DNA of 64,000 bases from an uncultured Gammaproteobacteria bacterium (GTDB lineage: Bacteria > Pseudomonadota > Gammaproteobacteria > SZUA-229), in the NCBI GenBank assembly GCA_937998645.1, contig CALLCZ010000037.1, positions 19,287 to 83,286 of the forward strand. Direction: 5' to 3'. This document shows, one piece after another, positions 11,750-33,100 of the stretch (within the stretch, counting starts at the first letter, position 1; every line of letters starts with the position of its first letter). The notes under the pieces were generated by a model, which had not been told where the DNA came from, searched no databases, and worked only from the letters and a program-made list of their open reading frames with translations. Made by a program: the position numbers and the translations under genes.

Positions 11750-11820
11750 TTATCTGAAAAACGTGGCCTGTCTCCATTGTCACTTCCTGTGCTCTGCCAA
11801 TCATCCAGCAGTACTTCCCA

Positions 11821-16478: not shown

Positions 16479-16553
16479 TGAATATCCGCAAATTTCCTGA
16501 ATTAAAACCATTTCTGATTATATTTGTATGAAGACGGTGACTAAGGCACAATT

Positions 16554-16570
16554 ATTGCACTGCAGCATTG
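16554..16570 (+). promoter_or_regulatory. PhaR-operator-like 14-mer (reverse complement AATGCTGCAGTGCA) 40 bp upstream of the PFOR gene
   Basis: Identical to box 1 of the phaP promoter at 32552-32565. Confidence 0.4.
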
Positions 16571-16608
16571 GCTATACTTAAACTGAATCTGGCATCGGGG
16601 CCGCAATT

Positions 16609-19600
16609 ATGGCAGACAAAAAGCAATCCAAGACATTCAAGTATCCCGGTATCCGCATGGCGATGGATGGCAACAGTGCCGTCATCATGTGCGAGCGCGA
16701 ATCTTCCGATGCGGCCGGTGCCTACCCGATTACACCGTCGACGCAGATGGGCGAGTACTGGGCGGAAGAGGCTGCTAAAGGGCACATCAATACAGCCGGA
16801 CGCCCGCTGATTTTCGTCGAGCCCGAAGGCGAGCACGCTGCCGCTGCGGTCACGGCCGGCATGTCGATGACCGGTCTGCGCGCGAGCAATTTCTCGTCTG
16901 CACAGGGGGTCGCCTACATGCACGAGTCCCTGTACGCAGCTGTCGGCAAGCGCCTGCCATATGTGCTGAATATCGGCTGTCGCGCGATTACCAAGGCTTC
17001 GTTGAACGTGCATTGCGGCCACGACGATTATCACTGCATCGACGATACCGGCTTCCTGCAAGTGATGGCTAAAAATGCCCAGGAAGCCGCAGACCTGAAC
17101 CTGATCGGGCGGCGCATAGCCGAACTGTCATTGACGCCGGCAGCCGTCGCCCAGGATGGCTTCCTCACCACCCACCTGATCGAGCCATTGAACGTACCGG
17201 AACGGGAGCTGATTGCAAAATATCTCGGACATCCGGAAGACATCATCGAATGCCCGACACCGGCACAGCGAATGCTCTATGGAGAAACGCGTCGGCGCGT
17301 GCCCGAACTCTGGGACGTCGATAACCCGGTCCTGGCCGGCCCGGTGCAGAACCAGGACGCCTACATGCAGTCGGTGGTAGCGCAACGCCCGTATTTCTTT
17401 GACCATATCAGGGAACTCTCCGAACAGGCCATGGATGAGTTCTACGAGCTGACCGGCAGGCGCTACCATCGGGTATCCGCATACCGCGCAGAGGATGCTG
17501 ATTACATCATACTCGGCCAGGGCAGCATGATCGTGCAGGCCGAGGCCGTCGCCGATTACCTGCGCGACAAACGCAAGCTCAAGGTCGGTGTGGTCAACAT
17601 GACCATGTACCGTCCGTTCCCGGGTGATCTGCTCGGCAAGCTGCTCAAGGGCAGGAAAGGTGTTGCGGTACTCGAGCGCACCGATCAACCGCTGGCCGAA
17701 GACCTGCCGCTGATCCGTGAAGTCCGCACGGCGCTGAGCAAGTGTATAGAGAACGCCAATGTCAGCAACGGTGAAATACCGTATCCGGATTACGATCGCT
17801 ATGGCAAGGGTGATATGCCGCGGCTGTATTCAGCCTGCTATGGTCTTGGCAGCCGCGACCTGCAGCCGGAGGCGCTGGTCGCCGCGGTCGAAAACATGCT
17901 GCCCGATGGAGCACACAAGCCGTTCTACTACCTGTCGGTGGATTTCATCCACGAGCAGGCGGCCAACCCGACCCAGGAAATACACCAGCAGAACCTGCTG
18001 CATATCTATCCCCATTTGAAAGACCTGGCGCTGCGCGGCAGCGAGAACCCGGATCTGCGGCCCGAGGGCTCGACCACGGTGCGCATCCACTCGGTAGGCG
18101 GCTGGGGTGCGATCACCACGGGTAAAAACCTGGCGATGACCCTGTTCGACCTGCTCGATTTCGACATCAAGGCCAATCCCAAGTACGGCTCGGAGAAGAA
18201 GGGACAGCCGACGACATACTATTTATCCGCGGCACCGGAACCGATACGGCTGAACTGCGAGTACCATTATGTCGACGTGGTCATGTCGCCGGACCCGCAT
18301 GTTTTCAGCCACTCCAATCCACTGGGCGGCCTCACCAAGGGTGGTTCCTTCATTATCCAGAGCGAGACCAGCGACGCCGCAGCACTGTGGGAGAGCTTCC
18401 CCGAATACGCCCGGCGCTACATTGTCGACAACGATATCCACGTTTACTACCTCGACGGGTTCAAGATCGCACGCGAGGAGGCCACCAACCCGGAACTGCA
18501 GTTCCGCATGCAGGGTAACGCCTTCCAGGGCGCCTTTTTCGCAGCATCACCGCTAATGGAACGCGCCAACCTGAACGAGGAAGGCCTGTTCAATGCAATC
18601 GACCGACAGCTACGCAGTAAATTCGGCGACAAGGGCGAACGCATCGTGCAGGATAACCTGCGCGTCGTGCGCCGCGGTTACGATGAGATTCATGAAATCA
18701 CCGACAAGTCACTCGAAAGCAAGGCCGCTGCACCTGTGGTCAAGCGCGTCGATCTGCCAGTAATGTTGAAACAGCTGCCGGAAGCCGACGGCGGCATCTC
18801 CGATGTTCACCGTTTCTGGGAACAGACCGGCAGCTTCTATGCCTCGGGGCAGGGCGAGGAAAACCTGGCTGACCCGTATATCTCGCTCAGCCTGATGCCG
18901 GCCTCCACCAGCGTTTTCAGGGACATGACCTCGATTCGATTCGATTACCCGGAGTTTATACCGCAGAACTGCACCGCTTGCGGCGACTGCTACTCGGTAT
19001 GCCCGGACAGCGCAATACCCGGCCTGGTCAACGATATCAGCGACGTGTTCGCAACCGCGATCAACAGCATCGAAACCGGTGGCCAGCCGACGCTGTACCT
19101 GCGACGCTCGGTGCGCGATGTCGAAAAGAAACTGCGCACCATGATCGATTCGGCCGGCGAGTCAGCCCAGATCAGCAAGCTGCTGAACCAGGCCGTACAG
19201 TCGACGCTGGCGGAATCAGACCTGGATGAAAACAACCGCCAGCAGATGGAACAGGAATTCGGCTGGTTCATGGATACCGTCGGTGAATTCAACTTCGCCA
19301 TCACCAAACCCTATTACCTGACGCGCGAAAAGAAGAACAAGAACAGCGGCGGCCTGTTCTCGGTCACCATCAACCCGTATACCTGCAAGGGCTGCATGGA
19401 ATGCGTTGAAGTCTGTGAAGACGATGCGCTGGTGGCCAGGCCGCAAACCGGTGAGGCTGTCGACAAGCTGCGCAAGGACTGGGATTTCTGGCTGAAACTG
19501 CCGACGACCAAGCCGGATTATATTCGCATCAGCGACCTCGATGAAAAAATCGGCGCGCTGGAAACACTGCTGCTGGACAAGAACAATTTCGAAGCAATGT

Positions 19601-21549
19601 CCTGCGGCGACGGCGCCTGTGTCGGCTGCGGTGAAAAATCGGTGATCCGCCTGTTCACCAGCACCGTTACCGCATTGATGCAGCCGAGGGTAAAAGCCCA
19701 GATCGCGAAGCTGGACAGCCTGATCGAGCAGCTGGACACGCATATCCACCTGAAGCTGGCAGAGTCGATCCACCTCGATGATCATAGCGCTATCAGCCAG
19801 GTGATCGCCGAGCACCGCGATACCGATCTTGACCTTGCCGACCTGTTTTCATCATTGAACAAGAACAATGGTGTGGAGCCTATCGATACCGAGTGGCTGC
19901 ACCGCAACACCATGCTGCTGAAACAGCTGCGCCGCCTCAAGTGGAAGTATGAAGAGGGCCAGACAGGCCGCGGACGTGCTGCAATGGGCATTCTCAACTC
20001 GACCGGTTGTACCTCGGTCTGGGGCTCGACCTGGCCGTTCAACCCGTACCCGTTCCCGTGGGCCAACCACCTGTTCCAGGATTCGCCATCGCTGGCACTG
20101 GGCGCTTTCCAGGGCCATATGGTGAAAATGGCCGAAGGCTTCAAGGCGATACGCATGGCCGAGCTGGAGCTGAACAGTGGCGGTTACAACGAAACCGAAC
20201 ACGGTGAATTCTTTCGCTATTTCGACTGGACCCGTTTCAGCGATGAAGAATGGCTGCTGTGCCCACCGGTGGTCGCGATCGGCGGCGACGGCGCCATGTA
20301 CGATATCGGCTTCCAGAACCTGTCGCGGGCTTTGATGTCGGAGATGCCGGTCAAGGTCATGGTGCTCGATACCCAGGTCTACTCCAACACCGGCGGCCAG
20401 GCCTGTACCTCGGGCTTTACCGGCCAGGTGTCGGACATGGCCGGCTATGGCAAGGCCTGGCAGGGCAAATCGGAAATTCGCAAGGAAATCTCGCTTATCG
20501 GCATGGCGCACCGCAATGCCTACGTGCTGCAGGGCTCCACTGCCAATATCACCCATATGCTGGAAGGCTTCATCGATGGCCTCAACAGCCGCCGTCCGAC
20601 GCTGTTCAACTGCTATGCCCCCTGTCAGCCGGAACACGGTATTCCCGATGATGCCAGCATGGCACAGAGCAAGCTTGCGCTGGAATCGCGCGCCTACCCG
20701 CTGTTCAAGTACGATCCGGACGCCGGCATCACTTTCGATGAATGCTGCAGCCTGGAAGGCAACCCGGCGATGGACGAGGACTGGCCGGTCTATCCGCTGA
20801 AGTACCAGGATGAAATCGGTACCGAACAGGTCATGGAACTGCCGATGACCTTTGCCGACTTCGCAGTCACCGAGGCCCGCTTCCGCAAGCATTTCAAGCA
20901 GGCGCCGCGGGGCAGCTGGAACGAAAACATGGTGCCGCTGCACGAGTTTGTCGACATGACTGAAGATGAGCGTGACGGTCGTTATCCCTACATCTGGGGC
21001 ACCGATTCGAAGAACCGTCTGACCCGGGTGATGGTATCGGAAACCCTGGTGCGCACTACCGTGGACCGGCGCGATTTCTGGCGCCAGCTGAAGTCGCTGG
21101 TGCCGATCGAGAAAGTGTTCGACATGGACCAGATCACGCAGCAGGCACGCAGCGATGTCGCCCAGCAGTTCACCGCAAAGCTATTGTCGATGATCCTGAA
21201 CCAGGAGGGCGCTGCACCGCTCGATATCGAGATGCCGCCCCCGGCTGCAGCCGCCGCCGACAGCGCACCGGCAGCGGCAGGCAGTGCCGGCAACGCGGAT
21301 TTCGAACCGGTGTGGATCGATACCCCGGAGTGTGACGGCTGCGAAGAGTGCATCCTGATCAATCCGAAGATCTTCCAGTTCAACGATGACAAGCAGGCGG
21401 TTGTTGTGGATCCGAAAGGTGGGCCGTTTATCGACATCGTGCGCTCAGCGGAGAAGTGCACTGTCAGCTGCATTCACCCGGGTACGCCGTCGAATGCCGA
21501 TGAAAAAGACCTCGATAAACTGATAAAAAGGGCCGAGCCTTTCCAGTAA
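16609..21549 (+). CDS. pyruvate:ferredoxin (flavodoxin) oxidoreductase, NifJ/YdbK type, unusually long (1646 aa) with an insertion in the ferredoxin domain and an extra C-terminal ferredoxin-like domain
   Basis: AYPITPST (domain I), GDGAMYDIGFQNL (TPP), CTACGDCYSVCPD and CKGCMECVEVCED (two 4Fe-4S motifs about 130 aa apart), C-terminal CDGCEECILINP...CTVSCIHP. Confidence 0.9.
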   Translation: MADKKQSKTFKYPGIRMAMDGNSAVIMCERESSDAAGAYPITPSTQMGEYWAEEAAKGHINTAGRPLIFVEPEGEHAAAAVTAGMSMTGLRASNFSSAQGVAYMHESLYAAVGKRLPYVLNIGCRAITKASLNVHCGHDDYHCIDDTGFLQVMAKNAQEAADLNLIGRRIAELSLTPAAVAQDGFLTTHLIEPLNVPERELIAKYLGHPEDIIECPTPAQRMLYGETRRRVPELWDVDNPVLAGPVQNQDAYMQSVVAQRPYFFDHIRELSEQAMDEFYELTGRRYHRVSAYRAEDADYIILGQGSMIVQAEAVADYLRDKRKLKVGVVNMTMYRPFPGDLLGKLLKGRKGVAVLERTDQPLAEDLPLIREVRTALSKCIENANVSNGEIPYPDYDRYGKGDMPRLYSACYGLGSRDLQPEALVAAVENMLPDGAHKPFYYLSVDFIHEQAANPTQEIHQQNLLHIYPHLKDLALRGSENPDLRPEGSTTVRIHSVGGWGAITTGKNLAMTLFDLLDFDIKANPKYGSEKKGQPTTYYLSAAPEPIRLNCEYHYVDVVMSPDPHVFSHSNPLGGLTKGGSFIIQSETSDAAALWESFPEYARRYIVDNDIHVYYLDGFKIAREEATNPELQFRMQGNAFQGAFFAASPLMERANLNEEGLFNAIDRQLRSKFGDKGERIVQDNLRVVRRGYDEIHEITDKSLESKAAAPVVKRVDLPVMLKQLPEADGGISDVHRFWEQTGSFYASGQGEENLADPYISLSLMPASTSVFRDMTSIRFDYPEFIPQNCTACGDCYSVCPDSAIPGLVNDISDVFATAINSIETGGQPTLYLRRSVRDVEKKLRTMIDSAGESAQISKLLNQAVQSTLAESDLDENNRQQMEQEFGWFMDTVGEFNFAITKPYYLTREKKNKNSGGLFSVTINPYTCKGCMECVEVCEDDALVARPQTGEAVDKLRKDWDFWLKLPTTKPDYIRISDLDEKIGALETLLLDKNNFEAMSCGDGACVGCGEKSVIRLFTSTVTALMQPRVKAQIAKLDSLIEQLDTHIHLKLAESIHLDDHSAISQVIAEHRDTDLDLADLFSSLNKNNGVEPIDTEWLHRNTMLLKQLRRLKWKYEEGQTGRGRAAMGILNSTGCTSVWGSTWPFNPYPFPWANHLFQDSPSLALGAFQGHMVKMAEGFKAIRMAELELNSGGYNETEHGEFFRYFDWTRFSDEEWLLCPPVVAIGGDGAMYDIGFQNLSRALMSEMPVKVMVLDTQVYSNTGGQACTSGFTGQVSDMAGYGKAWQGKSEIRKEISLIGMAHRNAYVLQGSTANITHMLEGFIDGLNSRRPTLFNCYAPCQPEHGIPDDASMAQSKLALESRAYPLFKYDPDAGITFDECCSLEGNPAMDEDWPVYPLKYQDEIGTEQVMELPMTFADFAVTEARFRKHFKQAPRGSWNENMVPLHEFVDMTEDERDGRYPYIWGTDSKNRLTRVMVSETLVRTTVDRRDFWRQLKSLVPIEKVFDMDQITQQARSDVAQQFTAKLLSMILNQEGAAPLDIEMPPPAAAAADSAPAAAGSAGNADFEPVWIDTPECDGCEECILINPKIFQFNDDKQAVVVDPKGGPFIDIVRSAEKCTVSCIHPGTPSNADEKDLDKLIKRAEPFQ

Positions 21550-21573
21550 ACAGCGCAGGCGATAAACATCACT

Positions 21574-22914
21574 ATGCTCAACGCTTTGTTTTCCAGCCGG
21601 TCCTTCAAGCACGGCGTCCATCCGCCGGATTTCAAGGCATTGACCAGCGGCCTGCCTATACGCCGACTGCCGTTTGCTGACAAACTGATCGTGCCGCTGT
21701 CACAGCACACCGGCAAGCCATCCATCCCGCTGGTGAAGCCGGGGCAGGAAGTCGTTCGCGGCGAGCCTATCGCGGAAGCCGACGGTTTCTTCTCGGTACC
21801 GCAGCACGCACCGGCCACCGGCCGCATCGAAAACATCCGCCTGATGCCCAGCGCGCGCGGCCCCAAAATTGAGAGCATCATTCTCCAGGTCTACGGCGGA
21901 TCCACCCAGCAGGAAATGTACGAGTATCGCCACGATGTCGATGCCATGAACACGGATGAAATCATTCAGGCTGTGCAGAATAGCGGCATGGTCGGCCTGG
22001 GCGGCGCCGCGTTCCCGACCCACGTTAAAATGAAACCGCCACCCGAACACAGGGTCGACACCCTGGTCGCCAATGGCTGTGAATGCGAGCCCTACCTGAC
22101 CTGCGATCACCGCATCATGCTGGAACAACCGGACAGGCTGATCAAGGGTATTCGCCTGTTCATGCGGGCCCTGGGTGTCGAGCGTGCAGTGATCGGTGTC
22201 GAGGACAACAAGATGGACGCGGTGCGGGTGATACAAAAGCACCTCGAACCAAACGACACCATCAGCGTCATGGACGTGCCCACCAAGTACCCGCAGGGTG
22301 CAGAGAAGATGCTGATACAGTCCGTGCTCGGGCGCAGGGTGCCGCCGGGGCAACTGCCGTCGTCGGTCGGTGTCGGTGTTTTCAATGTCGGCACTCTGGC
22401 GCAGAGCGGCGAACTGCTGCCACTCGGCCGCGGCGTCATCGAACGCGTGGTCACCGTCAGCGGACCCGGTGTTGAACGGCCGGGAAACTACCTGGTCCCG
22501 GTCGGTACGCCGGTCCGGTTCCTGCTGGAGCACGCCGGTACCACAGCCGATGCGAAGGAGGTGATTCTCGGCGGTCCTATGATGGGCATGACGGTGTCTG
22601 CGCTGGACGTGCCGGTGACCAAGGCGATGTCCGGCATGGTCGTGTTCGAACACGACCAGGAGAACCATCAGGGGCCCGAGCTGCCCTGTATCCGTTGCGG
22701 TTATTGCCTGAGCGCCTGCCCGATGCAGCTGAATCCCTCGATGCTGGGCATGCTGGCCACGAGTTCCGACTACGAGACCATGGCCAGCGATTACCACCTC
22801 AACGACTGCTTTGAATGTGGCAGCTGTACCTATGTCTGCCCGTCGAACATTCCGCTGGTGCAGTATTTCCGTATTGCGAAGTCCGTCAACCGCGACATGG
22901 CGGCAAAGGCATGA
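21574..22914 (+). CDS. rnfC: Rnf complex subunit C
   Basis: NuoF-like GLGGAAFPT motif and C-terminal CIRCGYCLSACP / CFECGSCTYVCP clusters. Confidence 0.9.
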   Translation: MLNALFSSRSFKHGVHPPDFKALTSGLPIRRLPFADKLIVPLSQHTGKPSIPLVKPGQEVVRGEPIAEADGFFSVPQHAPATGRIENIRLMPSARGPKIESIILQVYGGSTQQEMYEYRHDVDAMNTDEIIQAVQNSGMVGLGGAAFPTHVKMKPPPEHRVDTLVANGCECEPYLTCDHRIMLEQPDRLIKGIRLFMRALGVERAVIGVEDNKMDAVRVIQKHLEPNDTISVMDVPTKYPQGAEKMLIQSVLGRRVPPGQLPSSVGVGVFNVGTLAQSGELLPLGRGVIERVVTVSGPGVERPGNYLVPVGTPVRFLLEHAGTTADAKEVILGGPMMGMTVSALDVPVTKAMSGMVVFEHDQENHQGPELPCIRCGYCLSACPMQLNPSMLGMLATSSDYETMASDYHLNDCFECGSCTYVCPSNIPLVQYFRIAKSVNRDMAAKA

Positions 22915-22959
22915 TGTACTTTCGCGCAGGCATGCAAACCGGAACAGCCGGGCCCCTCG

Positions 22960-24006
22960 ATGGCTGATAGCAGGGCTGTCAAATCACTGCGCAGCTCGCC
23001 GCACCTGAAACAGTCGGTGACGGTCGCGCAGATCATGCGCAACGTGGTGTTCGCACTGATACCGGTCTGTGCCTGGTCGGTTTACGCTTTCGGCTTCAGC
23101 GTGCTGCTGTTGCTGGCGACGACCACCCTGGTGTGCATGCTCAGCGAGGCCATGTTCTGCCGGATTTCAGGCAGGACGAGCAGCCTCGGTGACTGGAGCA
23201 TCGTGATCACCGGCCTGCTGCTGGGACTGACCCTGCCACCCGGTTTCCCTTTATGGATGGCGGCTGTAGCCGCGTTCGTTGCAGTCGGGCTGGGCAAGGC
23301 GCTGTTCGGCGGCCTGGGCTACAACGTGATGAATCCGGCGCTGGTCGGCCGTGCTTTCGTGCAGGCCGCTTTTCCGGTCGCGATCACCACCTGGTCGCCG
23401 CCATTTCTGCCGGGCCGGTTCACCGAACTGATACCTTCGACCCTGACTGCCCCCTTCATGATGCCGGAACCAATCGATGCCTGGATCGATCAGAAGTCGA
23501 TCGATGCCTTTAGCGGGGCAACACCGCTGGCACTGCAGAAGTTCGAACAGGTATCCACGCCACTGACGGAGCTGTTGACCGGTACCGTGTCGGGTTCGGC
23601 CGGTGAAACTTCGGCGATTATCATCCTGCTGGGCGGCATCTATCTCGCGGCGCGCAGGATGATGGACTGGCGACTGCCGGTCGGTGTCATGCTCGGAGCG
23701 GTCATCGTCAGTCTGCCTTTCTGGCTGCTCGATGCGGCCCGCTATCCGGATCCGCTGTTCGTACTGCTATCCGGCGGTTTGATGCTGGCTGCGGTTTTCA
23801 TGGTCAGCGACATGGTGGCTTCACCGGTCACGCCGCTCGGCGTCTGGGTCTACGCCCTGTTCATCGGCATGCTGACCGTGGTGATTCGCCTGTTCGGTGG
23901 TCTGACCGAGGGCGTGATGTACGCGATCCTTCTAGGTAACGCGATATCGCCGCTGATTTCGCTGGTGACCCAGCCGAAGGTATTCGGCGAGAGGAACAAG
24001 TCGTGA
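22960..24006 (+). CDS. rnfD: Rnf complex subunit D
   Basis: NqrB-like polytopic membrane protein. Confidence 0.9.
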   Translation: MADSRAVKSLRSSPHLKQSVTVAQIMRNVVFALIPVCAWSVYAFGFSVLLLLATTTLVCMLSEAMFCRISGRTSSLGDWSIVITGLLLGLTLPPGFPLWMAAVAAFVAVGLGKALFGGLGYNVMNPALVGRAFVQAAFPVAITTWSPPFLPGRFTELIPSTLTAPFMMPEPIDAWIDQKSIDAFSGATPLALQKFEQVSTPLTELLTGTVSGSAGETSAIIILLGGIYLAARRMMDWRLPVGVMLGAVIVSLPFWLLDAARYPDPLFVLLSGGLMLAAVFMVSDMVASPVTPLGVWVYALFIGMLTVVIRLFGGLTEGVMYAILLGNAISPLISLVTQPKVFGERNKS

Positions 24007-24686
24007 GCCAGGCGGATATCAACACGGCAGTCGTGGACCCCGGCCTGACCACCCGGATGCTGCGTACGCTGGGGCTGGTTGCAATGCTGTCCGGTCTGCT
24101 GGTGGTGCTGACCTATCGATTCACCCTGCCAATGATCGAGGAGAACAAGCGTCTTGCGATCGAGCGTGCACTGTTCAAGGTGATACCCGGAGCCGTGTCG
24201 AGACAGGATTTCGTGATCACGGAACAGGGAATACGCAGGGCCGAGCAGAATACTGAGGGCGTCACGCTGTACGCGGGCTATGATCAGGAGGGCCGTTTGA
24301 AGGGTGTAGCGCTGGAGGCTGCGGCAGCCGGCTATCAGGATGTGATACGCATCCTCTACGGCTACGATCCCTATTGCCAGTGTATCCGCGGCTTCCAGGT
24401 GTTGAAGATGGCAGAAACGCCGGGCATTGGTGACAAGATCATCAAGGATGCGGACTTTCAGCAAAACTTTGTCGCGCTGGAGGCGCGTGCGCATGTATCG
24501 GGCAAAGGCCTCGAGCAAGCGATCGTACCGGTCAAGCACGGCACCAAGACCGAGCCCTGGCAGATCGATACCATTTCGGGGGCGACCATTACTTCGAAAG
24601 CGATCGCGCGCATGCTCAACGACAGTGCTCAACAGGTCGTGCCTATCATTCAGAAGGATCTTGCGATCGTGGAGGCCGGACTTTGA
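24003..24686 (+). CDS. rnfG: Rnf complex subunit G (FMN-binding)
   Basis: N-terminal TM and TISGATITSKA FMN-attachment motif; 4-bp overlap with rnfD. Confidence 0.85.
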   Translation: MSQADINTAVVDPGLTTRMLRTLGLVAMLSGLLVVLTYRFTLPMIEENKRLAIERALFKVIPGAVSRQDFVITEQGIRRAEQNTEGVTLYAGYDQEGRLKGVALEAAAAGYQDVIRILYGYDPYCQCIRGFQVLKMAETPGIGDKIIKDADFQQNFVALEARAHVSGKGLEQAIVPVKHGTKTEPWQIDTISGATITSKAIARMLNDSAQQVVPIIQKDLAIVEAGL

Positions 24687-24764
24687 AACGGGATAATTAC
24701 AGGTACCAGTGCAGTGTGGCAAGCCGGGGTGATCTGCTGCGGTGCCTGCATGGAGGAGCGCGAC

Positions 24765-25424
24765 ATGTCCGGGCTGCCTGATACAACGGAAAAAATCACG
24801 CTCGACACCTTCCTGCGCGGCTTGTGGGAGGAGAACCCGGTATTCGTGATGTTGCTGGGTATGTGCCCGGTACTCGCGGTTACGAATTCGGCCATCAATG
24901 CGCTGGCAATGGGGCTGGCCAGTACGTTTGTCCTGGTCGCGTCCAACAGCCTGGTGTCACTGATGCGCCATTTCATTCCGAAGCAGGTGCGCATCGCGAC
25001 CTATATCATCATTATCGCGACCTTTGTCACCATGGTCGATTACGCGATCCAGGCGATCAGTCTGGACCTGTACAACGCGCTGGGCGCCTTTATCCAGCTG
25101 ATCGTGGTGAACTGCATGATACTCGGTCGCGCCGAGGCCTATGCGTCGAAACAGCCGCTGGGTGCCACGATCATCAACGGTCTGGGTATCGGAGCAGGAT
25201 TCACGCTGGCGTTGTTGAGTCTGGGCACGGTGCGGGAAATTCTGGGTTCGGGTTCGTTGTTCGGTGTCGCCCTGTTCGGTGAAAACTTTCAGCCCTGGGT
25301 GGTCATGGTGCTGCCGCCGGGCGGTTTTTTCGTGCTCGGTGCCTGGCTGCTGATCTTTGCATGGGTTGGACAGCACCGGCAGCAGCGTATGGATCAACAG
25401 GAGGTGGCCCAGCATGACAGCTGA
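24765..25424 (+). CDS. rnfE: Rnf complex subunit E
   Basis: LWEENPVFVMLLGMCPVLAVT matches the RnfE/NqrD N-terminus. GGAGG RBS before the ATG at 24765; the track ORF starts further upstream. Confidence 0.85.
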   Translation: MSGLPDTTEKITLDTFLRGLWEENPVFVMLLGMCPVLAVTNSAINALAMGLASTFVLVASNSLVSLMRHFIPKQVRIATYIIIIATFVTMVDYAIQAISLDLYNALGAFIQLIVVNCMILGRAEAYASKQPLGATIINGLGIGAGFTLALLSLGTVREILGSGSLFGVALFGENFQPWVVMVLPPGGFFVLGAWLLIFAWVGQHRQQRMDQQEVAQHDS

Positions 25425-26004
25425 TTCCGTCGGTTACATTTTTATGAATGCAGCCATCGTCAACAATTTCGTGCTGGCGATGTTCCTCGGCATCTGCCCG
25501 TTCCTGGGCATTTCCGCCAAACGCGACACGGCCTGGAGTATGGGACTCGCGGTGATATTCGTGATGCTGGTCAGTTCGATCTGTGCGTACGGCATCAACT
25601 GGATGTTGACGCGGTTCGAGATCGAGTATCTGCGCCTGATCTGCTACATAGCGGTGATAGCCTCCGCGGTCCAGCTGGTAGAGATGACGATGAAAAAATA
25701 CAGCCCGGCACTGTTTCGAGCACTCGGTATTTTTCTGCCGCTGATCACGACCAACTGCGCAATACTGGGCGTCGCGCTGTTCCAGACATCACGGGAATAC
25801 AGCTTTACGCAAAGCGTCGCCTTCAGTCTCGGCGCGGGTGTGGGCTTTACCATTGCGTTGATGTTGATGGCCGGCTTGCGTCAGCATCTGGAGCTGGCTA
25901 AAGTGCCCAGCGTCAGTCAGGGCGCTGCGATGACCATGATGCTGGCAGGCCTGCTGTCGCTGGCCTTCATGGGCTTTGCCGGCCTGGGGGCATCGCATGG
26001 TTGA
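25414..26004 (+). CDS. rnfA: Rnf complex subunit A
   Basis: NAAIVNNFVLAMFLGICPFLG matches the RnfA/NqrE N-terminus; start overlaps the rnfE stop. Confidence 0.85.
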   Translation: MTADSVGYIFMNAAIVNNFVLAMFLGICPFLGISAKRDTAWSMGLAVIFVMLVSSICAYGINWMLTRFEIEYLRLICYIAVIASAVQLVEMTMKKYSPALFRALGIFLPLITTNCAILGVALFQTSREYSFTQSVAFSLGAGVGFTIALMLMAGLRQHLELAKVPSVSQGAAMTMMLAGLLSLAFMGFAGLGASHG

Positions 26005-26215
26005 TTTTGTGATCGCCAGTGTCGCAATAATGGTACTGTTGTGCGGCTGGCTGTTCGTACAGCACCTGGCGCGGCATTTTGCAGCACGGCACCCCGAATT
26101 CGGTCCGGCGCGTGAAGAAGGCAGCGGCTGCGGTCACAGCTGTCTGTGCACCGGCGGTAGCTGCGACAGAAAAGCGCACCGTTCGGCGGCGACAACCGAT
26201 AACAGAGACAGTTAA
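25997..26215 (+). CDS. small NqrM-like (DUF539-like) membrane protein with a Cys-rich tail, translationally coupled to rnfA
   Basis: MVDFVIASVAIMVLLCGWLFVQ (TM) followed by GSGCGHSCLCTGGSCDRK. ATGGTTGA junction overlaps the rnfA stop. Confidence 0.5.
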   Translation: MVDFVIASVAIMVLLCGWLFVQHLARHFAARHPEFGPAREEGSGCGHSCLCTGGSCDRKAHRSAATTDNRDS

Positions 26216-26234
26216 AGTGGGAGGTGGAAATGTT

Positions 26235-27098
26235 ATGAGTGAACTGAGCGATTACGATAGATCGTATCAACATGGGGCGACGGTCATCAGCACGGAGCGA
26301 ATTACACCCGATGATGTGCCCGAGGTGCGCAGTATTATGCTGCGGATCGATCAGCCGGACTTTACCTATCTTGAAGGTCAGCATGTCGGTGTAATCGTAC
26401 CGGGCCCCCATGAGTTCGGTCATGAAACGCATTTCAGGCTCTATACCATCGCCAACAGCCCGGTACAGCACCCCGGTGACTCAACCGAAATCGAACTCTG
26501 CGTCAGGCGTTGTTTCTACATCGATGAATTCAGTGGTGAGGAGCACCCGGGAATCGCCTCGAACTACCTGTGCGATCTGAATGTCGGCGACAATATCGTC
26601 CTCAGCGGACCTTACGGGTCGGCTTTCAACCTGCCTGCCGACCCCGATACCAATTTGCTGATGATCGGCAGCGGGACCGGCATCGCGCCGTTCCGGGCCT
26701 TTATGCAGTTCATCTACGAACATCAGCAGGACTGGAAAGGACAGATCGTGCTGTTTTACGGCGCACGCACCGGTATGGAAACACTCTACCGCAACGATCT
26801 GAAAAATGATCTCGACAAGTACTATGACCAGAAGACTTTCCGGGCCTTCGAAGGCTTGAGCAAGCGTCCCTGGATGCAAACCGATGACGGTCTGCATAAC
26901 GTGCTCGAGGAAAACGCGGTCGATATCTGGGAGCTGATGCAGGACCCGAAAACACACGTGTACCTGGCCGGGCTGGAAAACACGAAAGATAATTTCGAAA
27001 AGGTCATGCAGGAGGCCGCCGGTTCAAACGCACGCTGGCGCTGGATGCAGGAGGAAATGAAGGAGCAGGAGCGCTGGTCCGAGTTGATCTACAGCTAG
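26235..27098 (+). CDS. fpr: ferredoxin-NADP+ reductase (FNR/Fpr family)
   Basis: RLYTIANS FAD-binding motif and GSGTGIAPFRAF NAD(P)-binding motif. GGAGGTGG RBS before the ATG at 26235. Confidence 0.85.
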   Translation: MSELSDYDRSYQHGATVISTERITPDDVPEVRSIMLRIDQPDFTYLEGQHVGVIVPGPHEFGHETHFRLYTIANSPVQHPGDSTEIELCVRRCFYIDEFSGEEHPGIASNYLCDLNVGDNIVLSGPYGSAFNLPADPDTNLLMIGSGTGIAPFRAFMQFIYEHQQDWKGQIVLFYGARTGMETLYRNDLKNDLDKYYDQKTFRAFEGLSKRPWMQTDDGLHNVLEENAVDIWELMQDPKTHVYLAGLENTKDNFEKVMQEAAGSNARWRWMQEEMKEQERWSELIYS

Positions 27099-27343
27099 CC
27101 CGCATTTCTCACCAGGCGGCGTAGGATTCTGATAAGGCTTTTGTCTCTTTGAAGAAAACCCGGGTGATCAAAATACAGTGTGTTTTTCAAGCATGCCTAT
27201 CACGGTTCAGGCTGGTCTTCGCGTCCGCAAGCTTGCTCTTCACTCAAACCGTAGCTATTGCTACGCTTTTCGCTCCAGAGCGGCGCTTACGAACACGAAT
27301 CCTGCGCCTGCTCCCGTGATCCTGGTGAGAAATGCGGGCTAGC
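27097..27343. repeat. ~250-bp element bounded by a 21-bp perfect (34-bp imperfect) inverted repeat; overlaps the fpr stop codon
   Basis: TAGCCCGCATTTCTCACCAGG at 27097-27117 and its reverse complement CCTGGTGAGAAATGCGGGCTA at 27320-27340. Extended arms ggcgtaggattc / gaatcctgcgcc. Confidence 0.45.
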
Positions 27344-27548
27344 CCGCTTTATGCATCGATAATGTTTGCAGGAGCGGCCCATCGACTTGGCTCAGGACAG
27401 GCTTTAGCCGCGAAACACGCCAAGGACGCAAAAGCGTTAGCAATATTTTGCATCCCGTGCGCGATGTTAATAGCAGGCATTGATCACTTTCGCGTATTTA
27501 GCGTCTAAAGCCGCTTACACGGCGAGGCATCCATGCCTTGCCCCAGGA

Positions 27549-28616
27549 TCAGCTTCGTTCATCCAGCCAGGCGCCGATGGCCGGTGGCACCTGTTTTTGT
27601 GCCTTGCCGCTGACGTAAATGCCGATGTGCCCGCCAGGGAACGACAGCTCGGTGTAATCGTCCGTGCCCACATGTTGCTTCAGGGCCTGTGAGGCCGACG
27701 GCGGCACCAGGTGGTCCTGCATGGCGTACACATTGAGCACCGGCATCTTGATGTTGCCGAGGTCTACGGTCTTGTCGCCGATCTGCACGTCACCTTTGAT
27801 CAACTTGTTGGCCTGGTAAAAATCCTTGATGAACTGTCGATAGGCTTCGCCGGCCTGGTCAGGGCTGTCGAATATCCATTTCTCCATGCGCATGAAGTTC
27901 TTCAGCTGAGCGGGATTGTCGAGCAGGTCGACCATGTTCATATATTTCTGCCCGGCGAGCTGGTATGGCTTCAGCATAAGGAATGTCCAGTTGAGCAGTT
28001 CGCCCGGAATGTTGCCCAGTGTATCGACCAGCAGATCGATGTCGATGTTGCGCGCCCAGATCGAGAGCATATTGTCGGGTGTATGAAAGTCCACGGGTGT
28101 GACCATGGTGACTAGATTGGATACCTTTTCAGGATGCATCGCCGTGTAGCACAGGCTGAAGGTGCCGCCCTGACAGATGCCGAGTATGTTTACTGCGTCG
28201 ATGTCATGACGACGGCAGATGACATTCACGCAACGGTTTATATAGCCGTTGATATAGTCGTCGAGGTCAAGATAACGGTCGGCCCGGTCCGGGTAGCCCC
28301 AGTCGATCAGGTACACGTCGAGTCCTGCTTCCAGCAGTCCGCGCACGGTGGAGCGGTTCTCCTGCAGGTCGGTCATGTAGGGGCGATTGACCAGTGCATA
28401 AACGATCAGCAGTGGAATACGGTTCTGCACTTTCTTCGTGTCCGGCTGGAAACGGTACAGCACCATCTTGTCCTCATGGTAAACGGGTTCCTTCGGCGTG
28501 ACGCCGGCTGGAATGTCACCCACCTCCATCAGGTTCTGCAGCCCGTGGCCGAGCTTCTGGCTGAAGTTGGTGAGTTCCTCGAGTGCCTGGTCGGGGCGGA
28601 TCTGTATGGGAATCAT
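27549..28616 (-). CDS. phaC: class III poly(3-hydroxyalkanoate) synthase subunit PhaC
   Basis: 355 aa with lipase-box GICQGG. Strong RBS AAGGAGG. Lies 12 bp downstream of phaE. Confidence 0.95.
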   Translation of the reverse strand: MIPIQIRPDQALEELTNFSQKLGHGLQNLMEVGDIPAGVTPKEPVYHEDKMVLYRFQPDTKKVQNRIPLLIVYALVNRPYMTDLQENRSTVRGLLEAGLDVYLIDWGYPDRADRYLDLDDYINGYINRCVNVICRRHDIDAVNILGICQGGTFSLCYTAMHPEKVSNLVTMVTPVDFHTPDNMLSIWARNIDIDLLVDTLGNIPGELLNWTFLMLKPYQLAGQKYMNMVDLLDNPAQLKNFMRMEKWIFDSPDQAGEAYRQFIKDFYQANKLIKGDVQIGDKTVDLGNIKMPVLNVYAMQDHLVPPSASQALKQHVGTDDYTELSFPGGHIGIYVSGKAQKQVPPAIGAWLDERS

Positions 28617-28628
28617 GGTCGCTCCTCC

Positions 28629-29792
28629 TTATTTTCTGGTTGTTGCCTTGCGGGCAGTGGTTTTTTTCGTAGTGCGCTTTTTAGGCGAGGCGGGTTGTGC
28701 GGCTGCCTTCTTCGTTGTGCGCTTTTTCGCGGGCGTACGTTTTTTCACAGGCGCGGCTTTCTTCGACGCCACCGGTGACGCGGCAGGGCGCTCAGTCTCA
28801 TCGCGCAGCTGATCGATTTCTTCGCGCAGGGCGCGGTATCCGCGACGCATTTCGTGCAGGCGCTGGTGTAGCGTGTTGATCTCGCGGTGCGTTGGCATGT
28901 TCATGGACTCGAGCATCTCGTCAACGAGCAGCGAACTGTGGCGCTTGACCTGCATCAGCGCGTTGACCATTTCGCCGTACATCTCCGAGTATTCGCCGCT
29001 CATTGCATACTCGCCATAGACTTCTTCACAGGCGTCGACCCAGATGTTGTAGAACTCTCTCAGGCTGGTCACGGGTTCATCCGATGAGGCGGACTCGTTG
29101 AGTTTTTCCTGGAAGCGGTCGGTCGACTTGACGCCAACCTTGGACAGTGCGATCGCGTAGTCCTGCATTGCTTTCTGGTAGTCGAGCACCATGCGTGCCA
29201 GCTGCTGGTATTGCTCCTGGGACTCGCGCGAGTAGCCCACGCCGGGCATGGAAAGAAAGCGGTCCAGGTGCATGCGCATGTCGCCGGCCATTGCATCCGC
29301 ACCTTCCGGATGGAGTGCTTTCAGGAAATCGCCGGGCATTGGCGAAAACGAGGATGCGGTGCGCTGCCAGGTATCCATCGGCATGTTCCAGAAAGACATG
29401 AAATCTCGCATGTGGGGATCCTGCTGTGCGCTGAGAGATGTGCCCCAGGCGTTGCAGGCCTCGCGAACCCGGTCCAGCCAGTCGCTGACCATGTCCCCGG
29501 CTGTCTGTTCGCCCCCGCCTGGCGTTGCCGACACGTGTTCGGCCATACTGAAATACGACTTGCCCATGCCGACGAGCTTGTCGAAGAAGTCCTGCAGCAG
29601 GGGAGCGGTGCCGCTGGTCATCGGCGATACCGCTTTCCACCACTGGTCCAGCCCATCGGCCCAGGGGTTGTCAACTGCCTGATCTTTTGTAGCAGCCGTG
29701 CTGGCTTGCCGTGTCATGTCCATCCAGGCGTCCCAGAATTTGCGCTGGGCATCGAGCCAGGGTTCCGAAGAAAAAGGGTTTGAGTCTGTCAT
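28629..29792 (-). CDS. phaE: class III PHA synthase subunit PhaE with a Lys/Ala/Pro/Thr-rich histone-H1-like C-terminal tail
   Basis: PhaE-like N-terminus (MTDSNPFSSEPWLDAQRKFWDAWMD) with a GGAGG RBS at the ATG at 29792; the track start at 29870 is a TTG. Tail reads AASPVASKKAAPVKKRTPAKKRTTKKAAAQPASPKKRTTKKTTARKATTRK. Confidence 0.85.
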   Translation of the reverse strand: MTDSNPFSSEPWLDAQRKFWDAWMDMTRQASTAATKDQAVDNPWADGLDQWWKAVSPMTSGTAPLLQDFFDKLVGMGKSYFSMAEHVSATPGGGEQTAGDMVSDWLDRVREACNAWGTSLSAQQDPHMRDFMSFWNMPMDTWQRTASSFSPMPGDFLKALHPEGADAMAGDMRMHLDRFLSMPGVGYSRESQEQYQQLARMVLDYQKAMQDYAIALSKVGVKSTDRFQEKLNESASSDEPVTSLREFYNIWVDACEEVYGEYAMSGEYSEMYGEMVNALMQVKRHSSLLVDEMLESMNMPTHREINTLHQRLHEMRRGYRALREEIDQLRDETERPAASPVASKKAAPVKKRTPAKKRTTKKAAAQPASPKKRTTKKTTARKATTRK

Positions 29793-29895
29793 CCGGTGTG
29801 CCTCCGGGTAGTTGGTGGTTACAGGTCTCGAGCCTTGTACTGTTTTTTTGGCTCGGGGCTTTTCATTCAAGAGTGACCTATGGTAGCATGAAATT

Positions 29896-29908
29896 TGTGC
29901 AGTGCAAC
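29896..29908 (+). promoter_or_regulatory. PhaR-box-like TGTGCAGTGCAAC in the phaE / phaA divergent intergenic region
   Basis: Matches TGCTGCAGTGCAC of the phaP promoter at 11 of 13 positions; inverted repeat GTGCTGG-attg-CCAGCAC lies adjacent. Confidence 0.35.
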
Positions 29909-30051
29909 AAAAAAGCGTGCTGGATTGCCAGCACCGGTAACGGGCGGCTCTTCAATCAAGCGTGTGACAGGTATTTTCGTAGCGATTATTGCCGGCTTGA
30001 TACGAAGGGGTTCGTCTTGGCAGAATCGGAGAGACTGGAGAATTAAACAAA

Positions 30052-31235
30052 TGAGTAAAGAAACTGTAATTGTGAGTGCGGCGCGCACACCTCTCGGTGT
30101 GTTCGGCGGCACATTGGCCGATATTCCGGCCAGCGGACTGGGTGCGACTGTCATCCGAGCCCTGCTTGAACGCTCGGGATTGGCGCCGGACCAGATCAAT
30201 GAGGTCATCATGGGACAGGTACTGACTGCCGGTATGGGGCAGAATCCGGCGCGACAGGCTGCCCTGGGTGCAGGCCTGCCCGTAGAGGTGACGGCCATGA
30301 CGATCAACAAGGTCTGCGGTAGTGGACTGAAGGCAGTGCACCTCGCTTCCCAGGCGGTGCGTTGCGGCGATGCCGATATCGTCATTGCGGGCGGCCAGGA
30401 AAATATGAGCATGGCGCCGCACGTGCTTCCGAAATCCCGCCAGGGTATGAAAATGGGTGACTGGAAGATGGTCGATACCATGGTCAGCGACGGCCTTTGG
30501 TGCGCCTTCGATGACTGCCACATGGGTTTGACCGCGGAGAACATAGCAGTCAACTATGATATCAGCCGCGAGGTGCAGGATGCGTTCGCCGCATCTTCAC
30601 AACAAAAGACCGAGGCGGCGCAAAAGGCCGGCGTGTTCGCTGACGAAATCGTGCCTGTCGAGATTCCTCAGCGCAAAGGCGATCCCGTCGTGTTCGATAC
30701 CGACGAGTTCCCGCGCGCTGGAACCACCGCCGAGGGACTTGGAAAGCTGCGCCCGGCCTTCAAGAAAGAGGGGACTGTTACTGCCGGCAACGCGTCGGGC
30801 CTCAATGACGGTGCTGCCGGAGTTGTAGTTATGTCCAGGGAAAAAGCAGACGAACTCGGGCTGGCGCCGATGGCACGAATAGTGTCTTTCTCGAGTGCCG
30901 GTGTCGAGCCTTCTGTTATGGGCACAGGCCCTATCCCTGCCACCACGCAATGCCTGGAGCGGGCCGGCTGGGAGGTTGGCGACCTCGATCTGATCGAGGC
31001 CAACGAAGCCTTTGCGGCCCAGGCCATATCAGTGAATCAAAGTCTTGGCTGGGACCTCGAAAAGGTCAACGTCAGCGGCGGCGCGATTGCGATCGGTCAT
31101 CCGATCGGCGCTTCAGGTGCGCGGGTACTGGTTAGCCTGCTGCACGGCATGAAACGCAACGAGGCACGCCGCGGACTCGCGACGCTTTGCATCGGCGGCG
31201 GCCAGGGCGTGGCCATGGCCGTCGAACTTATTTGA
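30052..31235 (+). CDS. phaA: acetyl-CoA acetyltransferase (beta-ketothiolase) PhaA
   Basis: Thiolase motifs [21 protein letters not shown] and CIGGGQG; start [14 protein letters not shown]. Confidence 0.95.
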
Positions 31236-31256
31236 AATCAAACGGGGGAAACAGAA

Positions 31257-32006
31257 ATGAGTGGAATACTTGATGGCAAGATCGCGCTGATTACCGGCGG
31301 CACCGGCGGCATCGGCAAGGCTACCTGCAAGCGCCTGACCAAAATGGGCGCCCAGGTGGTTTCAACCTATCTCGGTGAAAGCAAGGCCCTAGAGATGCGG
31401 GAACAGATGAAAGAACAGGGCTGCAATATCGCGATCTACCCCTGTGATGTGAGCGATTTCGACCAGTGCCAGGCGCTGGCGGAAAGCATTCAGAACGACA
31501 TCGGCCCTGTTGACATCGTGGTCAACAACGCGGGTATCACGCGCGACACGACCATGAAGAAGATGACAGCCGAACAATGGCAGGCGGTGATCAACAACAA
31601 TCTGAACAGTGTATTCAATGTCACGCGCGCTTTTATCGAAAGTATGCTGGAGCGCCAGACCGGTCGCGTTGTCAATATCTCATCAATCAACGGCCAGAAG
31701 GGACAGTTCGGTCAGGCCAACTACTCGGCGGCCAAGGCCGGTATCCATGGCTTCACTATGGCGCTTGCTCAGGAAGTGGCACGCAAGGGAATTACGGTAA
31801 ATACGGTATCGCCCGGCTATATCGCCACCGAAATGGTGATGGCCGTCCCCGAGGAGGTCCGCAACCAGATCATTGCGCAGATACCTGTGGGGCGCCTTGG
31901 AAAGCCCGAGGAAATCGCAGCCCTGGTCGGCTTCCTGGCCTCCGAGGATGCGGCCTTCATTACGGGCGCCAACTTCGCTGCCAACGGCGGCCAGCACATG
32001 CACTGA
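31257..32006 (+). CDS. phaB: acetoacetyl-CoA reductase PhaB (SDR)
   Basis: TGGTGGIGKA Rossmann motif and YSAAK catalytic motif. Confidence 0.95.
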   Translation: MSGILDGKIALITGGTGGIGKATCKRLTKMGAQVVSTYLGESKALEMREQMKEQGCNIAIYPCDVSDFDQCQALAESIQNDIGPVDIVVNNAGITRDTTMKKMTAEQWQAVINNNLNSVFNVTRAFIESMLERQTGRVVNISSINGQKGQFGQANYSAAKAGIHGFTMALAQEVARKGITVNTVSPGYIATEMVMAVPEEVRNQIIAQIPVGRLGKPEEIAALVGFLASEDAAFITGANFAANGGQHMH

Positions 32007-32031
32007 AACTGAACGAGGGAGTTTGACCAAG

Positions 32032-32514
32032 GTGGAACAACGCATCATCAAGAAGTACCCGAATCGCCGGCTTTACGATACCGAGGAGAGCAAGTACGTG
32101 ACGCTGGCGCATTTGCGCCAGCTGATCCATGACGGGGTAGAGTTCAAGGTAACCGACAGCCAGTCCGGCAAGGACATCACGCGCAGTATCCTGATCCAGA
32201 TCATCACTGAGCAGGAGGCGGGTAACGAGGCGTTGTTCAGCACAGAAATGCTGACTGATCTGATCCGTTTCTATGACGAAACGGTACACGACGTGTTTCA
32301 GAGCTACCTGGACCAGAGCCTGCAAGCATTTACGGAACAGCAGCAGGTCATCCAGCAGAGTATGGAGGGCCTGGTCGGCGCCAGGGCGGCCAAAACCATG
32401 TCCGAACTGACCGAACGTAATGTCGAACTCTGGATGGATATGCAGAAAGGATTTCTGGAGGCGGCGGGTCTGGCAACCGGCAAATCCGGCTCACGGAAAA
32501 AACCCGGGAAATAG
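32032..32514 (+). CDS. phaR: PHA synthesis repressor PhaR
   Basis: VEQRIIKKYPNRRLYDTEESKYVTL is the PhaR N-terminal DNA-binding signature. GTG start 12 nt after GAGGGA; the track ORF starts upstream inside phaB. Confidence 0.85.
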   Translation: MEQRIIKKYPNRRLYDTEESKYVTLAHLRQLIHDGVEFKVTDSQSGKDITRSILIQIITEQEAGNEALFSTEMLTDLIRFYDETVHDVFQSYLDQSLQAFTEQQQVIQQSMEGLVGARAAKTMSELTERNVELWMDMQKGFLEAAGLATGKSGSRKKPGK

Positions 32515-32552
32515 CGTCAGGCATTCTTCGCCTGCCGACTGCATAGAAAAAA

Positions 32553-32635
32553 ATGCTGCAGTGCACAAAATTTTGCTTGACATGACCCTCATGATGACTT
32601 ATGCTGCAACGCAACAATGCTGCAATGCAGCAAAG
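32553..32635 (+). promoter_or_regulatory. phaP promoter (-35 TTGACA 32577-82, 17-nt spacer, -10 TATGCT 32600-05) overlapped by three ATGCTGCAnyGCA PhaR-type boxes
   Basis: Boxes at 32553-66, 32601-15 and the near-perfect palindrome TGCTGCAATGCAGCA at 32618-32. Confidence 0.6.
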
Positions 32636-32671
32636 TTCTTTCAATACAACCAGTATGATGAGGAATAGACC

Positions 32672-33037
32672 ATGCAAAAAGAAATATACAATACTTTCAA
32701 TGAATTAGGGCAGACCGCCTACGAGGCAGCCATGAAGATGGGTGAGGTTAACCTGCGCGCCGGCGAGAAATTGCTCGAGCAGCAGTTCGCTTTGACCGGC
32801 GCATTGCTGGAAACCGGCAGCAAGAACCTGGAATTGATGAGCCAGGCCAGGACGCCGCAGGAAATGCTAAACGGCCAGGCCAAACTCATTCAGGACTGTG
32901 GTCAGCAGTGGCTGAACAGCTGCCGCGGTACCGTCGAAATCGTAACTGAGGCACGTAATGCTGCTGGCGAGCTCGTTGAAGAGAACGTCAAGGCTGCCAA
33001 CGAAAAAGTCAAACAGGCTGCCAGCAAGGCCGCTTAA
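32672..33037 (+). CDS. phaP: phasin (PHA granule-associated protein)
   Basis: 121-aa Ala/Glu/Lys-rich helical protein immediately downstream of phaR with PhaR boxes in its promoter. Confidence 0.8.
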   Translation: MQKEIYNTFNELGQTAYEAAMKMGEVNLRAGEKLLEQQFALTGALLETGSKNLELMSQARTPQEMLNGQAKLIQDCGQQWLNSCRGTVEIVTEARNAAGELVEENVKAANEKVKQAASKAA

Positions 33038-33066
33038 ACAGTTTCCTCCCTTCCCTTGAGGTGCTA

Positions 33067-33100
33067 GGCCGGAGTTCTTCTGAGCTCCGGCCCTTTTTTA
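33067..33100 (+). terminator. rho-independent terminator of phaP
   Basis: GGCCGGAG-ttcttctgag-CTCCGGCC followed by CTTTTTT. Confidence 0.75.

Follow-up and report, generated by a model that had tools for sequence, protein, structure and literature searches.

A predicted PhaR operator upstream of a pyruvate:ferredoxin oxidoreductase-like gene in an rnf operon of an uncultured gammaproteobacterium

PhaR is the one known sensor of the granule status of the storage polymer polyhydroxybutyrate (PHB). Here, we report five PhaR-type boxes, four in a polyhydroxyalkanoate (PHA) gene cluster and one upstream of a gene for a pyruvate:ferredoxin oxidoreductase (PFOR)-like fused 2-oxoacid:ferredoxin oxidoreductase (OFOR), in a 64-kb stretch of DNA (the window; contig CALLCZ010000037.1, positions 19,287 to 83,286, forward strand, assembly GCA_937998645.1) from an uncultured gammaproteobacterium of the lineage SZUA-229. 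The nearest named relatives are a "Thiotrichales bacterium" metagenome-assembled genome, followed by Sedimenticola and "Candidatus Thiodiazotropha." Coordinates are those of the window, and related loci and contigs are denoted by L and a number.

Genes were mapped with Pfam and NCBIfam scans of the window, together with gene calls on near-identical contigs. The first gene of a conserved rnfB-OFOR-rnfCDGEA arrangement is rnfB (15609-16478, plus strand), followed on the same strand by the OFOR open reading frame (ORF) (16609-21549; ATG at 16609; 1,646 amino acids [aa], with a C-terminal ferredoxin-like domain), rnfC (21574-22914), rnfD (22960-24006), rnfG (24003-24686), rnfE (24765-25424), rnfA (25414-26004), and a ferredoxin-NADP-reductase-like (FNR-like) gene (about 26235-27098). 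The PHA cluster adjoins this operon, as it also does in L012, L091, and L181, and its order, phaCE <> phaA-phaB-phaR-phaP, is the same in L177-L181. It comprises the class III PHA synthase subunit genes phaC (27549-28616) and phaE (28629-29792) on the minus strand and, on the plus strand, phaA (thiolase, 30051-31235), phaB (short-chain dehydrogenase/reductase family acetoacetyl-CoA reductase, 31257-32006), phaR (the presumed binding protein, 32032-32514, GTG start), and phaP (a phasin of the Phasin_2 type and the classical PhaR target, 32672-33037). The phaR product matched PF07879 (PHB_acc_N, DNA-binding; E = 8.6e-30) and PF05233 (PHB_acc; E = 1.1e-13) and scored above the TIGR01848 equivalog cutoff (144.2 versus 109.45 bits). 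It is encoded by the sole regulator gene in the cluster, which appears to be cotranscribed with phaAB and to have no operator-bearing promoter of its own.

Three of the boxes surround a sigma70-type promoter of phaP (TTGACA-17-TATGCT, 32577-32605, plus strand, 10/12 consensus positions), where an initial annotation, made from the sequence alone, had placed them; their consensus, ATGCTGCARYGCA, matches at 32553, 32601, and 32617. Box 1 (32552-32570, core 32557-32565, plus strand) lies just 5' of the -35 element, box 2 (32600-32618, core 32605-32613, plus strand) overlaps the -10 element and the expected transcription start, and box 3 (32616-32634, core 32621-32629, plus strand) lies in the leader and includes the perfect palindrome that had been noted, TGCTGCAATGCAGCA at 32618-32632. 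A terminator was ruled out as the role of this palindrome, given that it has no T-tract and is positioned in the phaP leader. The fourth box, the 19-mer TTTGTTGCACTGCACAAAT (29893-29911, core 29898-29906, minus strand), occupies the 258-nt divergent spacer between phaE and phaA and holds the close variant reported there, TGTGCAGTGCAAC at 29896-29908 (minus strand, TGTTGCACTGCA).

The fifth box, upstream of the OFOR gene, is the 19-mer AATGCTGCAGTGCAATAAT (16551-16569, minus strand; core TGCACTGCA at 16556-16564) and lies in the 130-nt rnfB-OFOR intergenic spacer, downstream of rnfB. Its end is 39 nt from the ATG at 16609. The 14-mer AATGCTGCAGTGCA occurs exactly both here (16556-16569, minus strand) and in phaP box 1 (32552-32565, plus strand), in agreement with the initial annotation, which had reported it in reverse orientation 40 bp upstream of the PFOR start, within an interval (16554-16570) wider by 2 nt and 1 nt. 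A candidate -10 hexamer, TATACT (16573-16578, plus strand), with a putative promoter function, is found 3 nt downstream of the box. A 9-bp core, TGCA-N-YGCA, is common to all five boxes. As an exact match, the 9-mer TGCAGTGCA (or its complement) is found in the window three times, and all three are intergenic box sites. As to an RNA element in the spacers, an Rfam scan of 15000-34000 gave no match at E values up to 1.

The boxes follow the sequence logic of PhaR, PhbF, and AniA operators in Herbaspirillum seropedicae, Rhodobacter sphaeroides, Sinorhizobium meliloti, Ralstonia eutropha, and Paracoccus denitrificans. The footprint-confirmed PhbF operator of H. seropedicae, TG[N]TGC[N]3GCAA, is matched exactly by the OFOR-upstream box and phaP box 2; the PhaR operator of R. 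sphaeroides is CTGC[N]3GCAG; and the PhaR site of S. meliloti, confirmed by electrophoretic mobility shift assays with mutants, is a palindrome with YGCR-N-YGCR and AT-rich arms around the -35 region of phaP1 and phaP2. Those systems likewise have several sites bracketing the -35 region and start of phaP, a site in the phaR/pha biosynthesis region, and the regulator gene in the PHA cluster. The window differs from them in belonging to an uncultured gammaproteobacterium, in its class III (phaEC) cluster, and in its three phaP boxes, and it is known here from sequence alone.

PHA clusters were compared among L177, L178, L179, and L181 (PhaR 76-91% identical) and Ectothiorhodospira sp. BSL-9 (L180; 56%). 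In the first four, three phaP boxes stand in the same places around a conserved TTGACA, and L180 retains the box 2/box 3 pair with the same 16-nt spacing. The phaP box cores differ among relatives at R, N, and Y positions only, the variants of the box 1 core being TGCAGTGCA, TGCACCGCA, TGCGCTGCA, TGCGGTGCA, and TGCATTGCA. At the phaE/phaA box, the window and five relatives (L091, L177, L178, L179, and L181) share TTGTGCAGTGCAAC without change, while the sequence on the phaA side diverges; in L180 the box reads TTGTGCACTGCAAC, differing at the central N only. The phaP and phaE/phaA boxes are thus conserved in about 5-6 lineages, with variation confined to degenerate positions, as would be expected for a functional operator. 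This conservation, the match to published operators, and the adjoining bona fide phaR gene together point to PhaR as the obvious candidate binder.

The phaP-derived consensus ATGCTGCARYGCA has four matches in the window against 0.04 expected from dinucleotide-preserving shuffles: the three phaP boxes and the OFOR-upstream site (16556, minus strand), which is the sole match outside the phaP promoter in 64 kb. A 19-nt weight matrix was then built from 17 phaP and phaE/phaA boxes only, with the OFOR sites left out. The OFOR-upstream site scored 21.9 bits (training range, 21.5-31.2) and was the best nontraining match in the window, the next scoring 12.5. The OFOR-upstream match is more than chance, because the one extra match in 64 kb sits in a 130-nt spacer directly upstream of a gene and is conserved in relatives. 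A motif-like word within the OFOR coding region, TGTTGCGGTGCA (19898-19909, minus strand), most likely reflects coding constraint and is no operator, since the orthologues of L011, L014, L093, L095, L098, and L099 have it at the matching codon (+3289 to +3292 from the start).

The OFOR box is retained at the same place in the rnfB-OFOR spacer of the four closest lineages, namely the window (aattatTGCACTGCAgcattggcTATACTt; core, TGCACTGCA), L097 (OFOR 90% identical to that of the window; aattatTGCACTGCAgcattggcTATACTt unchanged), L012 (89%; atatatTGCACCGCAgcattagcTATACTt), and L099 (88%; atatatTGCAGTGCAgcattagcTATACTt). The cores in L097, L012, and L099 are TGCACTGCA, TGCACCGCA, and TGCAGTGCA, respectively, so that the orthologues show two substitutions, one at the central N and one at a Y position. 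In the box, 15/19 positions are identical in all four lineages, and around TATACT 10/11 are, compared with 25-46% in the flanking segments. The TATACT hexamer itself is invariant in seven lineages in which the flanks diverge. At the place of the box and upstream of the same TATACT, L011 (about 3575-3595), L093 (about 2540-2560), and L095 (about 2530-2550) carry a different palindromic element, TTACRATATYGTAATATC, and the spacers of L014 and L098 have neither the PhaR box nor this element. The TTACRATATYGTAATATC element is presumably the operator of another regulator, which would imply operator swapping at one promoter. Given the invariant TATACT and the differing elements upstream of it, an internal promoter most likely lies in the rnfB-OFOR spacer, with an upstream operator that varies by subclade. 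In the group with the PhaR box, the PHA cluster also adjoins this rnf operon (window, L012, L091, and L181).

The sequences give no support to a duplicated fragment of the phaP promoter as the source of the OFOR box; beyond the 14-mer, the two regions are just 78% identical over 27 nt, which is explained by the AT-rich arms, and the OFOR box and phaP box 1 differ from each other in relatives. No single relative supplied both the phaP promoter and the OFOR upstream region: the phaE upstream region of L012 is masked by N at the record end, the L181/L182 contig ends in rnfG, and L091 starts in rnfC. The region upstream of rnfB in the window (15044-15608) contains no PhaR-like box, its best matrix score being -10 bits.

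The matrix was also used to scan 2.27 Mb of related loci, from which PHA-containing loci and strain duplicates had been removed; target DNA (61.7 kb) consisted of the 450 nt upstream of rnfB and the rnfB-OFOR spacers. Matches of at least 14 bits numbered seven in target DNA and none in the other 2.2 Mb, so that the motif is not scattered through coding DNA. The initial annotation had named the opposite result, a similar frequency inside coding regions genome-wide, as evidence against its proposal. At 12 bits or above, there were eight and three, respectively. The eight target matches comprise three orthologous OFOR sites, rnfB-upstream sites in L104, L110, L117, and L126, and a site with one core mismatch in the rnfB-OFOR spacer of L124. 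Counted as independent events, these are six, against about 0.1-0.9 expected (background taken from all DNA or from intergenic DNA only). A scan with the core, not the matrix, gave two core matches in L109 (104 and 68 nt upstream of rnfB) and a second match in L110 (267 nt upstream of rnfB).

Several observations weigh against PhaR control of the OFOR operon. The -35 region of the candidate OFOR promoter is poor (AATTAT, 17-nt spacer), and a promoter scan called no promoter at TATACT in the rnfB-OFOR spacer. With rnfB lying upstream of the box, control would not reach the first gene of the operon. Read-through from an rnfB promoter is possible, and the spacer has no evident terminator. Sister lineages with an 83-85% identical OFOR (L011, L093, L095, L014, and L098) do without the box, so that within the close clade the site is restricted to one subclade, which suggests that it is young or dispensable. 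The four orthologous OFOR boxes count as a single evolutionary event, and they sit in a proximal promoter that, as a whole, is fairly conserved in the four lineages. As regards the matrix, it was trained on orthologous sites and its flank weights may be overfitted, and the OFOR sites of L012 and L099 score just 14-17 bits. The rnfB-upstream boxes of distant lineages are putative PhaR sites, and a PhaR of this specificity is presumed there; among the loci compared, the upstream regions of L104, L109, L110, L117, L124, L126, and L150 had no close relatives that would allow phylogenetic footprinting.

One alternative explanation is that the OFOR-upstream 14-mer is a chance or neutral TGC/GCA-rich word, conserved only as part of a promoter outside PhaR control. 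Looser motif definitions lend it some weight: the window has 39 occurrences of the pattern YGCRNYGCR, most of them in coding DNA, and 12 of TGNTGCNNNGCA, for which 4.9 were expected, and the 14-mer with up to two mismatches has three matches, a count reached by 9/100 shuffles. The single event behind the four orthologous sites, the conservation of the adjacent TATACT block, and the sister lineages that manage without the box fit this explanation as well. We nevertheless find it quite unlikely, in view of the 0.04 matches expected for the strict phaP-only motif and the one extra match falling in a 130-nt spacer, the confinement of orthologue substitutions to the degenerate N and Y positions, and the recurrence of high-scoring boxes at the OFOR operon in other lineages, at unrelated positions, with none of at least 14 bits elsewhere in 2.2 Mb. 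A more specific coincidence, which we judge to be highly improbable, would be that TTGCA in the OFOR box serves a sigma54 promoter (GGCAC-N5-TTGCA, 16545-16559) as its -12 element and resembles the phaP boxes by accident. The window and L097 do read aGGCACaattaTTGCAc, with the correct GG-N10-GC spacing (consensus, TGGCAC-N5-TTGCW), and rnf and nifJ genes are sigma54/NifA dependent in some diazotrophs. However, L012 has GA and L099 has AA in place of the near-invariant GG, although both keep the OFOR box and TATACT, and on this loss of GG a sigma54 promoter was ruled out as the main explanation; it would also fail to account for why GCAGCATT is conserved downstream of TTGCA, for the 14 nt shared with phaP box 1, and for the rnfB-upstream boxes elsewhere.

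Alternatively, the boxes may be genuine but serve another regulator that coordinates PHA and rnf/OFOR genes, or PhaR may act at the OFOR box as an activator or a roadblock. The identification of PhaR as the binder in this clade comes from sequence comparison, which leaves room for a different protein; the motif nonetheless agrees with PhaR sites footprinted by experiment in three other genera, its placement at phaP (5' of the -35 element and over the start) is that of known PhaR sites, and the cluster has no regulator gene besides phaR. As for the mode of action, PhaR of S. meliloti also activates some genes, the weak -35 region of the putative OFOR promoter is typical of activator-dependent promoters, and a roadblock role is conceivable for a box inside an operon, downstream of rnfB, but the box lies between the -10 and -35 regions, a repressor-like position. 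In either form, we regard this alternative as unlikely. The OFOR-upstream box is therefore best read, and in our assessment probably rightly so, as a functional PhaR operator, and PhaR control of the OFOR operon is a prediction well supported computationally.

Under this predicted PhaR control, the five boxes would be operators of a PHB-responsive repressor, each with a 9-bp palindromic core (TGCR-N-YGCA) that is extended by TGY on the 5' side and by an A-rich arm on the 3' side. Three would be placed over the phaP promoter (5' of the -35 element, at the -10 element and start, and in the leader), one in the phaEC/phaABR spacer, and one at the OFOR gene, spanning roughly -16 to -29 from the expected start. 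If PhaR behaves as it does in Ralstonia, Paracoccus, Herbaspirillum, and Sinorhizobium, the free protein would occupy the operators in cells lacking PHB granules and would block RNA polymerase, repressing phaP, the OFOR-rnf-FNR unit, and probably phaEC and phaABR as well. Once granules form, they would titrate PhaR and thereby derepress phaP, OFOR, rnfCDGEA, and the FNR-like gene, and ferredoxin-dependent pyruvate/acetyl-CoA interconversion, together with ferredoxin:NAD(P) exchange, would be expressed only with PHB present. The module might serve acetyl-CoA supply and the disposal of ferredoxin electrons during PHB synthesis, or it might carboxylate PHB-derived acetyl-CoA to pyruvate on mobilization.

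The initial annotation proposed that PhaR coregulates pyruvate synthase with PHA synthesis; the regulatory part is supported by the motif, its conservation, and its enrichment, and the remainder needs qualifying, as the enzyme falls below the PFOR cutoff and the controlled unit is probably larger than one gene. The OFOR product has the Pfam domains POR_N, PFOR_II, POR (gamma), Fer4 (2×[4Fe-4S]), TPP_enzyme_C, and Fer4_13, its best solved relatives are the PFORs 6cin and 1b0p, and its score is below the TIGR02176 equivalog cutoff (401.1 versus 911.35 bits), so that the defensible name is a divergent, PFOR-like fused 2-oxoacid:ferredoxin oxidoreductase. It has the same domain order (I-II-III-ferredoxin-TPP) as NifJ-type PFORs (TIGR02176; 1b0p and 6cin) but differs from them in being about 450 residues longer, in its extra C-terminal ferredoxin-like domain, and in its constant position between rnfB and rnfC.

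The synteny of rnfB, OFOR (1,646 aa), and rnfCDGEA holds in about 135 fetched loci (L011-L176), in which rnfC is usually followed by rnfDGEA and then, in many lineages, by the FNR-like gene; in "Ca. Thiodiazotropha," ppsA, not the FNR-like gene, follows rnfA. The module was found in this clade, Sedimenticola, "Ca. Thiodiazotropha," a Lamellibrachia endosymbiont, and two Shewanella species, and no description of an rnfB-OFOR-rnfC module was found in the literature searched. Short spacers and conserved gene order suggest that OFOR, rnfCDGEA, and the FNR-like gene are cotranscribed, as we presume. As OFOR comes second in rnfB-OFOR-rnfCDGEA-FNR, PhaR would probably control a unit made up of OFOR with the downstream rnf and FNR genes, rnfB lying outside it. 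The fixed position of OFOR between rnfB and rnfC, with the FNR-like gene after the rnf genes, suggests that the module exchanges electrons between NAD(P)H and ferredoxin, coupled to 2-oxoacid/acyl-CoA interconversion.

PhaR regulons that include pyruvate and redox genes are already known or predicted in alpha- and betaproteobacteria. AniA/PhaR of S. meliloti directly controls genes at the pyruvate node (ppdK, pdh, and pyc), its extended regulon also taking in gltA and zwf, and the PhaR regulon of Bradyrhizobium diazoefficiens reaches pleiotropic functions. In a putative PhaR modulon of Accumulibacter, the palindromic motif precedes a cytoplasmic hydrogenase operon and genes for acetate activation. 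The proposed regulon in the window has the same reach to the pyruvate/acetyl-CoA node and to redox-balancing enzymes, and it differs from those regulons in its target, a ferredoxin-dependent oxidoreductase in an Rnf operon with an FNR-like gene. Literature searches, covering open-access texts only, turned up no previous account of a PhaR operator at a PFOR-like operon embedded among rnf genes. PhaR control of the OFOR operon would thus be a new predicted regulon member and an incremental extension of a known regulator, with no new mechanism.

For thiotrophic symbionts ("Ca. Kentron"), carboxylation by PFOR has been proposed to take place during PHA mobilization. The physiological pairing is the same, with PHA storage, PFOR as a pyruvate synthase, and Rnf in related sulfur-oxidizing Gammaproteobacteria; that model, however, is metabolic (from genome, transcriptome, and isotope data) and has no regulatory link, whereas the window offers a candidate cis-regulatory one. 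If the OFOR-upstream box is a PhaR operator, carbon storage would be linked by regulation to ferredoxin-dependent pyruvate/acetyl-CoA interconversion in thiotroph-related Gammaproteobacteria, the published idea of PHA mobilization via PFOR carboxylation would gain a concrete test, and the rnfB-OFOR-rnfCDGEA-FNR module (widespread in Sedimenticola, Thiodiazotropha, and tubeworm symbionts) would become part of storage-polymer physiology. A wider scheme, which we put forward tentatively and hold to be rather doubtful as a whole, is that PhaR senses PHB granules and directly switches on a ferredoxin-dependent pyruvate synthase along with the Rnf and FNR proteins that supply its reduced ferredoxin. 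Heterotrophic CO2 fixation and the redox balance of ferredoxin would in that case be hard-wired to PHB mobilization, or to PHB synthesis as an electron sink, in uncultured Gammaproteobacteria related to sulfur oxidizers. Such wiring would have had several origins, its operators lying ahead of rnfB in some lineages and in the rnfB-OFOR spacer in others.

The phosphoenolpyruvate synthase gene ppsA is a recurrent neighbor of these systems. In the window (12650-15043, minus strand), it is divergent from rnfB; in "Ca. Thiodiazotropha," it comes after rnfA (e.g., L037, 13387-15750); and in L179, it directly follows phaP, together with its regulator kinase gene (11083-14460). This neighborhood hints at a linked route from acetyl-CoA through pyruvate to phosphoenolpyruvate, and under the proposed PhaR control, ppsA next to rnfB (or phaP in L179) would carry the route on to phosphoenolpyruvate.

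Between rnfA and the FNR-like gene, an ORF of 71-82 aa was called in relatives (L093, 11978-12226; L095, 11998-12246; L183, 5123-5371), the corresponding interval in the window being about 25997-26240. The 339-aa ORF with a TTG start in the window (26079-27098) may correspond to a 287-aa FNR preceded by a small ORF. The FNR-like gene and phaC are separated by a spacer with a perfect 23-nt inverted repeat, GCTAGCCCGCATTTCTCACCAGG (27094-27116 and 27321-27343), which brackets 204 nt and may represent a small mobile element or form a long hairpin. In the strain contig L003 (9275-9972), which is otherwise identical, phaB was called as a truncated 164-aa product plus an antisense ORF, possibly the result of a frameshift or an assembly error in that sample.

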